A stretch of DNA of 8,391 nt from Vibrio cholerae ATCC 14035. GTDB taxonomy: Bacteria; Pseudomonadota; Gammaproteobacteria; Enterobacterales; Vibrionaceae. This document shows positions 2,533-7,878 of the stretch, one piece after another. The translations under genes and the position numbers were made by a program. The DNA lies in assembly GCF_000621645.1 (NCBI RefSeq), contig NZ_KK211326.1:7228-15618 (forward strand), written 5' to 3'. Position 1 is the stretch's first letter, and every line of letters begins with the position of its first letter. The notes below the pieces were generated by a model. That model was not told the origin of the DNA and did not search any database. It saw nothing but the letters and a program-made list of their open reading frames with translations.

Positions 2533-2546
2533 AAATGGAGTTCGTT

Positions 2547-2828
2547 ATGAGCCGTATTCACCTTGATCAAGATATTCAGCCTTTGTCTGAGTTCCGTGCT
2601 GGCGTTGCATCATTTATCAAACAGATCAATGAGACTCGTCGACCATTGGTTATTACACAACGAGGTAAAGGTGTAGCCGTTGTTCTTGACGTTGCGGAGT
2701 ATGAAGCAATGCAAGAGAAAATCGAATTACTCGAAGAAATGCGTACTGCAGAAGCTCAATTGGCTGCAGGTTTAGGTATATCAAACGAAGATGCTCGTTC
2801 ACAAGTTCTGGGGCGCATCATCAAATGA
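2547..2828 (+). CDS. Type II antitoxin, Phd/YefM family (93 aa from ATG 2547; the ORF track starts at 2535)
   Basis: The N-terminal pattern (S..EFRA.....I..IN.T..P..ITQRGK...VVL....YE.M.E..E.LE) is typical of Phd/YefM. GGAG at 2537-2540 sits 6 nt before ATG 2547. The stop overlaps the toxin start (ATGA at 2825-2828). Confidence 0.9.
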   Translation: MSRIHLDQDIQPLSEFRAGVASFIKQINETRRPLVITQRGKGVAVVLDVAEYEAMQEKIELLEEMRTAEAQLAAGLGISNEDARSQVLGRIIK

Positions 2829-3112
2829 AAGTAGTTTGGTCACCTCTAGCGTTACAAAAACTGGGTGATGCCGCAGAGTTTATTGCTTTGGATAACCCAT
2901 CAGCTGCAGAAAAGTGGGTGAATGAAGTATTCGACAAAACGGAATTGCTCGGCTCAATGCCAGAAATGGGCCGCATGGTTCCTGAAATGCCTCATACGAA
3001 CTACCGTGAAATAATTTTTGGTCATTACCGCATTATTTATAGTTTGAGCCACGAAATCCGCGTTCTAACAGTTCGTAACTGTCGTCAATTGCTCACGGAA
3101 CATGATGTGTGA
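2825..3112 (+). CDS. parE: Type II toxin, ParE-like (RelE/ParE superfamily), 95 aa
   Basis: The N-terminus W.P.A...L...AEFIA.DNP.AA..W resembles ParE, as does the C-terminal Y.EIIFG.YRIIY.....I.VLTV core. It is translationally coupled to the upstream antitoxin by a 4-nt ATGA overlap. V. cholerae superintegrons are known to carry several such modules. The symbol indicates family only. Confidence 0.88.
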   Translation: MKVVWSPLALQKLGDAAEFIALDNPSAAEKWVNEVFDKTELLGSMPEMGRMVPEMPHTNYREIIFGHYRIIYSLSHEIRVLTVRNCRQLLTEHDV

Positions 3113-3822: not shown

Positions 3823-3946
3823 TAACAAACGCCTCAAGAGGGACTGTCAACGCGCGGCGTTTCCAGTCCCAATAAGCCGCGGTGGTTTCGGTTGTTGTGA
3901 TTGAGTTTTGTAGTAATGCGTTGCCAGCCCCTTAGGCGGGCGTTAT
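3823..3946 (+). repeat. attC site (VCR) of cassette 3246-3946
   Basis: VCR sequence; TAAC at 3823, GTTAT at 3942-3946. The ATG of the next ORF overlaps the R' core. Confidence 0.95.
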
Positions 3947-4394
3947 GTTCCTTTGGAGAAAATTTTTGAACCAAGATAGTGATTTAATGGAGTGGCCTAA
4001 ATTTTTACTCGATCATAAGAAATTACAGTGGATCTATGATCGAGATAAAGCAGCGCTATTATCTGTAGTGATTTTATATTACTCATATTTTTATGCATCG
4101 CTACTTGAGTTACCTTCTATTTTCTCTAGTTCAGGTTCGATAGTTTCAGCTATAGGCCTTCTATTAACACTAAAACACAACTTCTTAAGTAGCGTAAAAA
4201 ATCCTGAAGAAGCAGTTGCTAAACATAACCAGTATGGTCGTACAAATTCTATCTTTATGATGAAAATGCCCAGTGTGGTAAATCCTACGATAATTGCGTT
4301 AAAGGATGAATATGTGGGAATCTTGTTGGTACTACTTGGAGGTATTACTAATGGATATGGTGGCTTTTTGCCACTACTTGGCAGTGGAACATAA
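3945..4394 (+). CDS. Hypothetical membrane protein, 149 aa (start uncertain; alternative ATG at 3987)
   Basis: Three hydrophobic segments (AALLSVVILYYSYFYASLL, SIVSAIGLLLTL, YVGILLVLLGGITNGYGGFLPLLG). The ORF fills the whole cassette: ATG 3945 lies in the upstream R' core and the TAA stop is the first 3 nt of its own VCR. Confidence 0.65.
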   Translation: MFLWRKFLNQDSDLMEWPKFLLDHKKLQWIYDRDKAALLSVVILYYSYFYASLLELPSIFSSSGSIVSAIGLLLTLKHNFLSSVKNPEEAVAKHNQYGRTNSIFMMKMPSVVNPTIIALKDEYVGILLVLLGGITNGYGGFLPLLGSGT

Positions 4395-4515: not shown

Positions 4516-4688
4516 CTTCTTAAAGGCTAGAATCCTCAAAATCTGGGTTTAATTGTCCTGAAAATTCAGCTTTTAGTGCTCAAGTTTCACAATTTGGCTT
4601 TCGAGTTTTTTTGATGCTGATTTGGTCGAACGTGTTGAAAGTTCAGTGGTTTCAAAGTCGCTGAAAACCATCAAACCTCGATGCTTCA

Positions 4689-4871
4689 ATGTTGTTGGAT
4701 GCTCAACTCGGAAAGTTTGGTTTCACAAAAGGCTGCATCATCGCTGACAGTGTTTTTTCTTTGTCGAGGACTCTTAACCGTGGCCAACTTAACCTTGAGC
4801 GTTTTGAGTTTTGGCAGCCAACTTCACAGCTTTTGGCGTTGGACGTGTGTTTGAGAGATGCTTTTGCATAA
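4689..4871 (+). CDS. Doubtful 60-aa hypothetical ORF in a paralogous cassette (copy B); may not be translated
   Basis: Paralog of 310-492 with the same length, start and stop. It has no Shine-Dalgarno, and nonsynonymous differences dominate. Confidence 0.25.
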   Translation: MLLDAQLGKFGFTKGCIIADSVFSLSRTLNRGQLNLERFEFWQPTSQLLALDVCLRDAFA

Positions 4872-4927
4872 AATGCATTTCAAGCAAAAGTGTTAGAAAG
4901 CCATTGTTAAACAATAGGCTACGAAGC

Positions 4928-5050
4928 TAACAAACGCCTCAAAGGGACTGCCAACGCGTGGCGTTTCCAGTCCCAATGAGCTGCGGTGGTTACGGCTGTT
5001 GTGTTTGAGTTTGGTTGTTATGCGTTGTCAGCCCCTTAGGCGGGCGTTAT
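4928..5050 (+). repeat. attC site (VCR) of cassette 4516-5050
   Basis: VCR sequence; TAAC at 4928, GTTAT at 5046-5050. Confidence 0.95.
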
Positions 5051-5078
5051 ATCAATTTAGAGATAGGTGCAAAAAATA

Positions 5079-5771
5079 ATGAAACTATATGAGAATGTAG
5101 TTATTGGAAACTTTCTTTATGGATTAGGCTACTCTATTGGTACTAAGAAAGGCGGAAATGAGGTTCTGTCAGTCGTAAACCTGCTTCAACAAACGCCAGC
5201 AGACAAAGAGTTGGGCGATGTACTTTTAGAATTTCCTGGAGTTGTAAAACTCATAGAGTTTAAAAACAAAGCTGGCAGCTTAAAAAAAGAGATGCAAAGA
5301 CACTCTCAATTAAAGTCGGCATTGGGAGAAGACCATGCAAATATTTCTTTGTCTAAGAGTATTCACTGGTATGTTGAAACCGAGCCTTTTAATGATCTTT
5401 GTATAAATAATATCAAACCTTATTTGGATGCTTTTGATAGTAGTGTTAACGATAGTTTTACATTAGAAACTTTTATTGAGAAAATTGTAGACGATGTATT
5501 TAGTAACGATACCAATTTTAGCGATGATGACTTTAAGGACTATTTGAGTTTGGTTGCTAGGTGCCAAGGTACAGGAGAGGTAGGAACTGGAGGTATAATC
5601 ATCGCAGTTTCTGAGAGTAGAATTAAGTATTTCCAGTTTACGGATATTATGCAGCTCAGGTTACAACATGAAGAATATGTGAATGAGATAAAGAATCAAT
5701 TTAATAAAAGTATAGAGGCTAAAAAAAGTCTTAATAGAACCAAAGGTTTCGATATGGAGATAAGTCGATAA
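5079..5771 (+). CDS. Hypothetical protein, ~230 aa, with a PD-(D/E)xK-like motif (possible nuclease-fold protein); the ORF track starts at GTG 5067
   Basis: It is the longest ORF in the window and is AT-rich. AGGTG at 5065-5069 lies 9 nt before ATG 5079. In track numbering the motif is LGD51-VLLEFPGVVKLI-E64-F-K66 (D at 5217-5219, K at 5262-5264), i.e. D-x12-E-x-K in a hydrophobic strand context. The stop overlaps the next start (TAATG at 5769-5773). Confidence 0.8.
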   Translation: MKLYENVVIGNFLYGLGYSIGTKKGGNEVLSVVNLLQQTPADKELGDVLLEFPGVVKLIEFKNKAGSLKKEMQRHSQLKSALGEDHANISLSKSIHWYVETEPFNDLCINNIKPYLDAFDSSVNDSFTLETFIEKIVDDVFSNDTNFSDDDFKDYLSLVARCQGTGEVGTGGIIIAVSESRIKYFQFTDIMQLRLQHEEYVNEIKNQFNKSIEAKKSLNRTKGFDMEISR

Positions 5772-5950
5772 TGGAGAGGTTAGATAAGTTATTTGATGCA
5801 GCTGCTAATTTGCTTGCTGCAAGTGAGAAAAATGAACAAAGATTTTTAAATGCAATCACGTCAATTGAAAAGACTAACCGGAGTGTTAGTAGAGTTGAGT
5901 CAGAGACTAAAATAGCAATAAAAGAGTCTACCCAAAATGCATCAAGTTAA
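5771..5950 (+). CDS. Small coiled-coil ORF, 59 aa (below the ORF-track cutoff); possibly the 5' part of a gene interrupted by an in-frame TAA
   Basis: ATG 5771 overlaps the upstream stop (TAATG), and GGAG at 5756-5759 lies 11 nt upstream. The translation is MERLDKLFDAAANLLAASEKNEQRFLNAITSIEKTNRSVSRVESETKIAIKESTQNASS*. It is in the same frame as ORF 6053-6331, with no other stop between them. Confidence 0.45.
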   Translation: MERLDKLFDAAANLLAASEKNEQRFLNAITSIEKTNRSVSRVESETKIAIKESTQNASS

Positions 5951-6052
5951 ATAGCGGATAAGGTTTCGGAGCAATTATTTAAAAAACTTGAACATGCGCA
6001 TGTTAAAGCAGAACAAGCAGCGTCTAGGTATGAGAAAGCAAGCAGATATTCG

Positions 6053-6331
6053 GTGTTAAAACTATCTTTCATTATGCTTATATTATTAATTTGTGTTGCA
6101 ATTAGTATTTGGTTCCTATTTGTCAAAGATATTCCCACTATAAATGAGATTAACGAGCTAAGAAGTGAGAAAGCGCAACTTCAAGCTCAGATAGAGAAGC
6201 TTAATCAGTATGGTCACATCACGAGTTGTGATGGTAAATTGTGTGTTTCTGTAGATAAAAATGACAGCTATAAATCTAGTGATGGTAAGGTTATTTATTA
6301 TGTAATAGCCCCTCGAGATAGTAAAAATTGA
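6053..6331 (+). CDS. Single-pass membrane / coiled-coil protein, 92 aa from GTG 6053; possibly the 3' part of the interrupted gene starting at 5771
   Basis: A TM helix (LSFIMLILLICVAISIWFLFV) is followed by a heptad-like stretch (INELRSEKAQLQAQIEKLNQ). There is no recognisable RBS before GTG 6053 or ATG 6074. The frame stays open back to the TAA at 5948-5950. Confidence 0.5.
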   Translation: MLKLSFIMLILLICVAISIWFLFVKDIPTINEINELRSEKAQLQAQIEKLNQYGHITSCDGKLCVSVDKNDSYKSSDGKVIYYVIAPRDSKN

Positions 6332-6333
6332 TA

Positions 6334-6425
6334 TAACAAAGCATTTAAGAGTGATTCGCAACGCTTGGCGCTTTCGCTTCGCTCAAGTATAGCCAAGCGT
6401 CGCTCACACCTTAATGCGGCGTTAG
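6334..6425 (+). repeat. attC site, non-VCR type (92 bp), of the multi-ORF cassette 5051-6425
   Basis: TAACAAAGCATTTAAGAGTGATTCGCAACGCTTGGCG...GCCAAGCGTCGCTCACACCTTAATGCGGCGTTAG. It has TAAC/GTTA cores and complementary arms (GCAACGCTTGGC vs GCCAAGCGTCGC; CATTTAAGAGTGA vs TCACACCTTAATG). Its length and sequence differ from VCR. Confidence 0.85.
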
Positions 6426-6445
6426 GTTTCACACGGAGGTAGTGT

Positions 6446-6856: not shown

Positions 6857-6860
6857 AACC

Positions 6861-6936
6861 TAACAAGGCCATCAAACATCGCCCCCTTCGGGGGCTGGAC
6901 TCGCAAAACACGCTCGCCGTTTATGGCAAGCGTTAG
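6861..6936 (+). repeat. attC site, non-VCR type (76 bp), of cassette 6426-6936
   Basis: TAACAAGGCCAT...ATGGCAAGCGTTAG terminal inverted arms with TAAC/GTTA cores; a central GCCCCC-TTCG-GGGGGC hairpin; short, unlike VCR. Confidence 0.82.
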
Positions 6937-6950
6937 GTTTAAGGTTTTTC

Positions 6951-7496: not shown

Positions 7497-7619
7497 CTCT
7501 CATCTGTATATACATCAATAAATTCAATCGCTTGACTGATTTTTGATAATTCGCTCTCTTTTTAGCTCAGGAAAATATGTTTATATGCTCGTCTTATATA
7601 AAAAACAGTTGGTATTGGA

Positions 7620-7856
7620 ATGAATAATAGATTTTGTGAAAAGTGTGGCCAAAAAACTGAGCATAAAGAACTCATAAAGCAAAAACCCTCAAAGTATGGA
7701 AAAAGTAAAAAAGAACAATTTAAAGCTTTTCTGGATGGCTTTTTTGGTGGTGTAGCAAGTCCGGTTGGAGCATCGTTAGATCTCATCGATAGATATGTGG
7801 TTTGTAGTGTGTGTGGTCACAAGACTCTCGATAATCAAGGTGATGAATTTCTCTAG
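7620..7856 (+). CDS. Small zinc-ribbon-like protein, 78 aa
   Basis: Two CxxC pairs sit at opposite ends (C6-EK-C9 and C62-SV-C65). The protein is lysine-rich in the middle. It is co-oriented with the array, and its RBS is weak (ttggaATG). Confidence 0.68.
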   Translation: MNNRFCEKCGQKTEHKELIKQKPSKYGKSKKEQFKAFLDGFFGGVASPVGASLDLIDRYVVCSVCGHKTLDNQGDEFL

Positions 7857-7878
7857 TTATCAGTGTGTTAATGAGAGT

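Follow-up and report, generated by a model that had tools for sequence, protein, structure and literature searches.

Compact defence systems are encoded in integron cassettes (10.1101/2024.07.02.601686). Of the systems closest to the locus described here, SNIPE, a nuclease bound to the membrane, cuts the DNA of phages while it is being injected (PMC13190303), Epona – from the integron of Vibrio cholerae N16961 – is a single gene in which Mrr_cat is joined to a holin domain that has two transmembrane (TM) helices, and Sucellos depends on both of its genes for defence (10.1101/2024.07.02.601686). The subject of this report is a pair of genes, designated A and B, that occupies one integron cassette in a stretch of 8,391 nucleotides (8.4 kb; hereafter the window) from V. 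cholerae ATCC 14035 (contig NZ_KK211326.1). The evidence tips, by a narrow measure, towards the A-B cassette being a two-gene conflict (defence) module of an undescribed family, in the form of a membrane-tethered nuclease.

By analogy, SNIPE would be the closest working precedent for A-B. Both are compact, both lie in accessory DNA and both involve a nuclease held at the inner membrane (predicted in the case of A-B), where location could be the rule by which self is told from non-self; indeed, a natural fusion of A and B would be a single membrane-anchored nuclease polypeptide, as SNIPE is. SNIPE, however, is one protein that has DUF4041 and a GIY-YIG-type nuclease domain, whereas in A-B the task would be divided between a PD-(D/E)xK-like protein and a second, bitopic protein that has a domain in the periplasm, and no sequence-family match links the two in Pfam or PADLOC scans. 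With Epona the pair has in common a small integron cassette, the combination of a restriction-endonuclease-fold domain with a membrane element, and having been missed by defence-finding software; it differs in consisting of two genes, in the absence of an Mrr_cat match in A, and in coming from a cassette of the O395 lineage. To judge from sequence, neither SNIPE nor Epona is related to A or B. A two-gene operon encoding one cytoplasmic and one membrane protein is likewise the arrangement of RexAB and Sucellos. RexB is a multi-pass channel-like protein, whereas B has one TM helix and A has a conserved nuclease-type triad; neither Pfam nor PADLOC reveals any similarity of A-B to RexAB or Sucellos. 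Two published defence screens of Vibrio integron cassettes describe no system fitting A-B. One of them covered 88 cassettes of N16961, and these probably did not include the A-B cassette, because only 88 contigs are on record with the exact A protein.

An exact-sequence look-up shows the protein of gene A to be identical to V. cholerae O395 ABQ19105.1 / ACP11245.1, and on this basis the window is evidently part of the chromosome-II superintegron of the classical V. cholerae O395 lineage. The GTG at 5067, which is listed as the start of the open reading frame (ORF), falls within a Shine-Dalgarno-like AGGTG, and all homologs begin MKLYEN: the true start of gene A is evidently the ATG at 5079. 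The D-x12-E-x-K motif noted in the first-pass annotation is indeed present, but with this start its residues are renumbered from D51/E64/K66 to D47/E60/K62. Among 121 aligned A sequences E60, F61, K62, E71, H96, W97, Y115 and Y155 are invariant, and E5, N6, Q37, Q38, P40, D42 and D47 are conserved in at least 90%; E100 is also counted among the invariant or near-invariant residues. The family is rare and patchy. One search recovered at least 347 homologs, and 517 representatives (at 50% identity) are found among 1.84 billion proteins; members are stand-alone proteins of ~230-260 amino acids.

Two AlphaFold2 models of A were obtained (predicted local distance difference test (pLDDT) about 72; predicted template modelling score (pTM) 0.65 and 0.70), with moderate confidence across the modelled core (pLDDT 60-93). 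The core runs from a helix (residues 5-24) through three strands (29-35, 48-52 and 55-63) and a second helix (69-82) to further strands at 96-103 and 108-114. The resulting α-β-β-β-α-β order is that of the PD-(D/E)xK core, with D47 opening β2 and E60 and K62 within β3, and the D...(D/E)-x-K motif of this superfamily is conserved in the 121 sequences to the extent given above. Nearly all entries of the Foldseek list from the PDB are PD-(D/E)xK enzymes, none at an E-value of 1e-3 or better; it includes bunyavirus cap-snatching endonucleases (E 0.014), HincII, archaeal Hjc, MGME1 and CinB. Among the viral structures of BFVD the matches are to PDDEXK nucleases, a YqaJ-like recombinase, a RecU-like protein and a Cas4-like protein, the top match having a probability of 1.0 and a TM-score of 0.63. 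A is thus like members of the superfamily (Hjc, HincII, bunyavirus endonuclease, RecU, Cas4) in the order of its predicted secondary structure, in the position of D...ExK on β2/β3, in a conserved acidic residue in helix α1, and in its fold-search matches. It is unlike them in matching no profile of a described PD-(D/E)xK family, and in having an extra α/β region (~residues 129-190) and a long charged C-terminal helix. A profile search of PDB sequences with A returned nothing. From motif conservation, predicted topology and fold-search matches – all of which point the same way – we infer that A is a PD-(D/E)xK-type nuclease, and with this its activity, in keeping with the nuclease fold guessed at the outset.

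Scans of each of the 121 A homologs against known families gave weak matches only: EAD8, Halogen_Hydrol and APOBEC1. In NTPase conflict systems EAD8 (Pfam PF19961) serves as an adaptor domain. One member of the A family, P0043, which has an ordinary A-B pair, matches it at 29.6 bits against a cut-off of 27 (residues 65-149); at E < 1 the match is seen in just four of the 121 members, and the protein from the window is without it. Halogen_Hydrol (XpaC) falls just below its cut-off in 11 of the 121, on the same stretch (residues 65-149 of P0043; residues 62-119 of P0084, P0095 and P0110); this stretch overlaps the predicted nuclease core.

Downstream of A the first-pass annotation had seen two more frames and thus three coupled frames in all. 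The cassette in fact holds two genes: frames 5771-5950 and 6053-6331 lie in the same frame, read through as one sequence of 186 codons save for one TAA, and are the two halves of B. Close homologs of B are each a single protein of 182-186 amino acids that aligns over its full length. The stop is a single GAA>TAA change, and an intact V. cholerae allele (P0146, 98 contigs) is the same as the translation from the window except for Glu60. Records of the fragment proteins come from 49, 31 and 44 contigs; all three occur together on one contig of ~1.13 Mb. Because fragments are recorded in dozens of contigs, sequencing error is ruled out as the source of the stop, and the nonsense mutation is real; it is also recent and fixed in the O395 lineage. 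With this mutation in gene B, the window's copy of A-B is in all likelihood inactive. A cassette that reads as "several coupled frames" may, then, conceal a pseudogene.

Rejoined, B consists of a helical N-terminal domain (~95 residues), a TM helix, a coiled coil and a C-terminal mini-domain. Hydropathy and homolog alignments agree with the earlier description of one TM helix flanked by coiled-coil or helical segments, and a TM segment at residues 95-125 is kept in 46 loci. The helix is preceded on its N-terminal side by a basic flank (RYEKASRYSVLK); the positive-inside rule, taken with a pair of cysteines in the mini-domain (C153 and C158, both conserved), predicts a topology with the N-terminus in and the C-terminus out. 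Beyond the helix a conserved motif, IP(T/S)xxEI, leads into a coiled coil of ~25 residues. Database matches of B are weak and confined to generic coiled-coil, DivIC/FtsL-like and spanin-like models. Per-member scans of 42 B homologs gave weak DivIC and synaptobrevin-type matches only, and a profile search of PDB sequences with B gave only designed coiled coils and SNAREs. A phage origin for the spanin-like B is ruled out, no homolog of A being found among 50,697 phage records.

A and B are strictly paired, and the pair is mobile. Sixty-seven loci were fetched with the A profile, and in 46 of these an ORF of 160-230 amino acids with a TM segment at 95-125 lies right after the A stop; the junction is an overlap or a gap of no more than ~30 bp in 46-55 loci. 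With a B-profile hidden Markov model, B is found directly downstream of A in ~55 of ~60 loci with intact A, which bears out the suggestion, made from this one cassette, that a putative nuclease is paired with a membrane/coiled-coil partner. A third search for homologs, run with the B profile, brought little more. The loci span Gamma-, Beta- and Alphaproteobacteria, Campylobacterota and Cyanobacteria. When the ORFs were clustered all against all, only two genes proved to be conserved, A in 64 loci and B in 51 (five others have a short variant): there is no conserved third gene. By the arrangement of their reading frames A and B are translationally coupled. In Roseateles/Pelomonas (Burkholderiales) the short B is reduced to the helical domain with a TM anchor at its C-terminus, and in a single case – a metagenome-assembled genome of an uncultured proteobacterium (locus L062, 6001-7161) – A and B are fused into one protein of 386 amino acids that ends in a TM helix. 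With such a fusion, A and B's helical domain would share one side of the membrane, which is an argument for joint action; A and B may well form a complex.

The module evidently decays from either gene. Gene A is truncated or fragmented at six loci (L029, L058, L063-L065 and L067), in genomes that include Pseudomonas baetica, Candidatus Pantoea formicae, Erwinia tracheiphila and Photorhabdus viridis. On the Pseudomonas aeruginosa plasmid pSE5369-NR (NZ_MN894889.1; L078, 7001-10312) A is intact and B has been cut to 117 amino acids by an IS21-family insertion (istA/istB), which makes this a second, independent loss of B with A kept.

The pair occurs in several kinds of mobile DNA. A near-identical A-B cassette is present in integrons of Vibrio species, Pseudoalteromonas and Halomonas, and in V. 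mimicus (array L002) and Halomonas (L001) the cassettes upstream of it are different ones. Oceanospirillum and H. citrativorans have a 55%-identical A-B pair with a short attC after it. A-B thus appears as an integron cassette in at least two lineages. A second pair in V. cholerae, 54% identical, lies between TraG_N and TraN in an element integrated in the chromosome (L070, 1-16714), classed as an integrative and mobilisable element (IME), that also has Integrase_1 and an FlhC-like gene and whose layout we take to resemble that of SGI1-type mobilisable islands: within this one species A-B is apparently present in two types of mobile DNA. In an integrative and conjugative element (ICE) of Pectobacterium (ICEclc/PAPI-like) A-B sits between TraI_2 and DUF3742/TraG_N, near AbiEii, and several Pseudomonas ICEs have it in the corresponding place. 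In Sulfuricella it is cargo of a Tn7-like element together with an N6_Mtase/Eco57I gene (a restriction-modification (RM)-type methylase); here A lies 7.5 kb from TniB/TniQ among the cargo, and a TnsA-like transposase role for A is ruled out on that ground.

Elsewhere A-B adjoins SIR2-HerA (Moritella), lies near a TIR protein (Halomonas), follows directly on an ABC-3C system and is itself followed by a DUF2779 protein and one of helicase/nSTAND type (Aliarcobacter), or shares an island with integrase, AAA_13 and HigB genes (Cedecea). The 140 nearest neighbours, taken from 41 loci, include SMODS+AGS_C (cyclic-oligonucleotide-based anti-phage signalling system, CBASS), S_4TM, OLD/Gabija-like ATPases, ResIII and Fic, along with integrases, TniB/TniQ and TraG_N. 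In at least five of nine genome contexts (a raw count that leaves out the contig of P0043) a defence-type gene – TIR, AbiEii, RM-type methylase, SIR2-HerA or ABC-3C – lies within 10 kb, and two further contexts have defence-suggestive ATPase or endonuclease genes only. A itself is found in 6 of 72,556 plasmid records, and with so few occurrences a plasmid transfer gene is ruled out as a general explanation. The first-pass annotation had set defence islands and other integrons against plasmid mobilisation regions as the neighbourhoods to be distinguished: homologs do lie in defence islands and among the cargo of mobile elements, but some, a minority, are inside conjugative transfer regions. Taken together, such contexts are what one would expect for cargo that serves in defence or in conflict between elements.

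Searches of Pfam, NCBIfam and PHROGs with A, with both B fragments and with rejoined B gave nothing above threshold, and PADLOC-DB 2.0.0 gave no match at E <= 1 for any of the four queries, in line with the earlier remark that neither protein was recognised as a known family. A-B is a widespread, undescribed two-gene module family.

On the reading put forward at the outset, A would be a cytoplasmic PD-(D/E)xK-type nuclease and B an inner-membrane protein whose cytoplasmic N-terminal helical domain probably holds A at the membrane, with the C-terminal coiled coil and disulfide-type mini-domain on the periplasmic side. B would position the nuclease at the membrane, or switch it on there, and A would cut incoming foreign DNA (during phage injection or conjugation) or act after a signal from the envelope. 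It is because of genomic context that we infer a defence function. A tentative extension, to which we give rather low probability, is that A is docked to the inner membrane by B, that the periplasmic domain reports on or contacts the DNA-entry machinery, and that foreign DNA is known by its place of entry and not by its sequence. Several observations weigh against a membrane-tethered defence nuclease: every fold-search E-value for A is above 1e-3 and the models are moderate (pLDDT about 72); neither protein matches any PADLOC, Pfam, NCBIfam or PHROG model; the defence-neighbour counts are raw and without a genome-wide background comparison; some homologs lie between conjugation genes; and in the window's copy B is broken and an own promoter is lacking. 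The defence reading is nevertheless plausible, and better supported than its rivals.

The position of some pairs among transfer genes bears on the first of these rivals, namely that A-B is an accessory of conjugative or mobilisable elements – with a part in entry or surface exclusion, or in rivalry between elements (such as the breakdown of DNA that comes in by conjugation) – and not an anti-phage system. The 54%-identical pair of V. cholerae, between TraG_N and TraN, would fit such a role, as would the TraI_2 – DUF3742/TraG_N location in ICEs of Pectobacterium and several Pseudomonas; one source labels a B homolog "Mobilization protein", and the shape of B (a TM helix with a periplasmic coiled coil) would suit a function at the level of the envelope. 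Yet most loci have no transfer genes nearby, plasmids with A are as scarce as given above, the pair moves as a stand-alone integron cassette, neither protein matches a conjugation-family model, and ICE hotspots often carry defence cargo in any case. We regard this explanation as unlikely.

Somewhat less probable again is a reversal of roles, with abortive infection of the RexAB kind: the part of A, whether catalytic or not, would be that of a DNA-binding sensor in the cytoplasm, and B would be an effector that damages the membrane. That B can be lost while A is kept would fit a harmful or costly effector, and B has its weak spanin-like and DivIC-like matches; moreover, two-gene systems of sensor and membrane effector are known from V. 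cholerae integron cassettes (Sucellos, 10.1101/2024.07.02.601686). The single TM helix of B, however, offers no channel-like multi-pass body, the Burkholderiales short B and the A-B fusion keep only the helical domain and TM anchor, which suits an anchor over a pore, and the invariant D/E/K triad of A argues for catalysis.

That the pair is an addiction module of toxin-antitoxin type, lending stability to the array or to its host element, with A as nuclease toxin and B as its neutraliser, is very improbable: although two-gene toxin-antitoxin cassettes are many in chromosomal integrons (one is at 2535-3112 of the window), and although translational coupling and the nuclease-like fold of A would fit, B has been destroyed with A intact in the O395 lineage (B fragments in 31-49 contigs, exact A on 88 contigs) and again on pSE5369-NR, whereas a type II antitoxin is not lost while its toxin is intact – such a loss would be impossible unless A alone were harmless – and B, a 186-residue membrane protein with a predicted periplasmic domain, is unlike known antitoxins, no toxin-antitoxin family model matching the pair.

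The membrane-tethered nuclease module that we favour over these alternatives is set within an array of 13 integron cassettes separated by V. cholerae repeats (VCR-type, ~120 bp). The ends of its cassette were set by the G|TT rule, from the TT of the upstream R' core to the G of the R' core that belongs to the cassette. On the left the border is R' GTTATAT (5046-5052) of the preceding VCR, and the cassette's own attC has the cores R'' ATATAAC (6331-6337) and R' GTTAGGT (6421-6427). The bottom strand of this attC folds into a hairpin (-18.7 kcal/mol, z = -2.6), and both of its ends agree with the attC of the same cassette in the Halomonas integron: the unit is bounded by core sites, has the bottom-strand hairpin and recurs in other arrays with different neighbours, as integron cassettes do. 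No promoter-like site lies between the upstream attC and the start codon of A, so that the cassette appears to have no promoter of its own, and there is no terminator; an Rfam search of the window found no RNA family. Positions of the features are collected in Table 1.

Several earlier statements about the cassette can be made more exact. It is, as described, the largest in the window, with 1281 bp of unique DNA; the 12 others have 267-654 bp, so that the range given before (~260-560 bp) is too low at its upper end. It is AT-rich (34.0% G+C) but not uniquely so, cassettes 7498-7877 and 3946-4391 having 33.9% and 35.2%. Its attC is of non-VCR type, as had been recognised, but is 97 bp long and not the 92 bp (6334-6425) first assigned.

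Table 1. Features of the A-B cassette, in positions of the window
Feature	Position	Strand	Remarks
Integron gene cassette	5047..6421	+	1375 bp, two genes; core sites read from sequence
Shine-Dalgarno-like AGGTG	5065..5069	+	9 nt 5' of the gene A ATG; read from sequence
Gene A	5079..5771	+	230 amino acids; predicted PD-(D/E)xK-fold nuclease
Putative catalytic motif of A	5217..5264	+	D47 5217-5219, E60 5256-5258, K62 5262-5264
Gene B	5771..6331	+	186 codons; 1-base overlap with gene A (TAATG); pseudogene in the window
In-frame TAA, codon 60 of B	5948..5950	+	V. mimicus cassette has the Glu codon GAA here; intact V. cholerae alleles also have Glu
TM helix of B	6056..6124	+	residues about 96-118, single; hydropathy maximum 3.1 at residue 100
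Predicted periplasmic part of B	6134..6328	+	IPT/SxxEI motif, ~25-residue coiled coil, two-Cys mini-domain (from alignments)
attC of the A-B cassette	6331..6427	+	97 bp, non-VCR type; aligned with VCRs and the Halomonas cassette attC

Other parts of the array have features of their own. The cassettes at 137-545 and 4516-4925 are copies of one another (83% identity across 397 bp); each has an ORF of 60 amino acids (310-492 and 4689-4871, respectively) of which the C-terminal half is conserved, with no match among the families looked at. The cassette at 2535-3112 has two genes that overlap by ATGA (2825-2828), with products of 97 and 95 amino acids that we take to be a Phd/YefM-type antitoxin and a ParE/RelE-type toxin. 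Two more attC sites are not canonical VCRs: that at 1677-1797 is a 121-bp variant that has GATTCGCAACGC in common with the attC of the A-B cassette, and that at 6859-6937 is short (~79 bp), with a GC-rich CCCCCTTCGGGGG hairpin. An ORF of 120 amino acids at 1310-1672 contains a run of AKY/AKYA repeats (QPAKYAKYAKYAKYAKYAAYAKP).

If intact alleles of A-B protect against phage or conjugation, they would add to the defence repertoire a compact two-gene system of ~1.3 kb that is carried by integrons, ICEs and Tn7-like elements, and nucleases that work from the membrane would then be known in a second, unrelated case. Should foreign DNA be recognised by its site of entry, this would be a second, independently evolved answer to the principle seen in SNIPE, and it might cover both phage injection and conjugation. 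In V. cholerae, the nonsense allele of O395 and an intact allele that is identical except for one base in B make up a natural loss-of-function pair.

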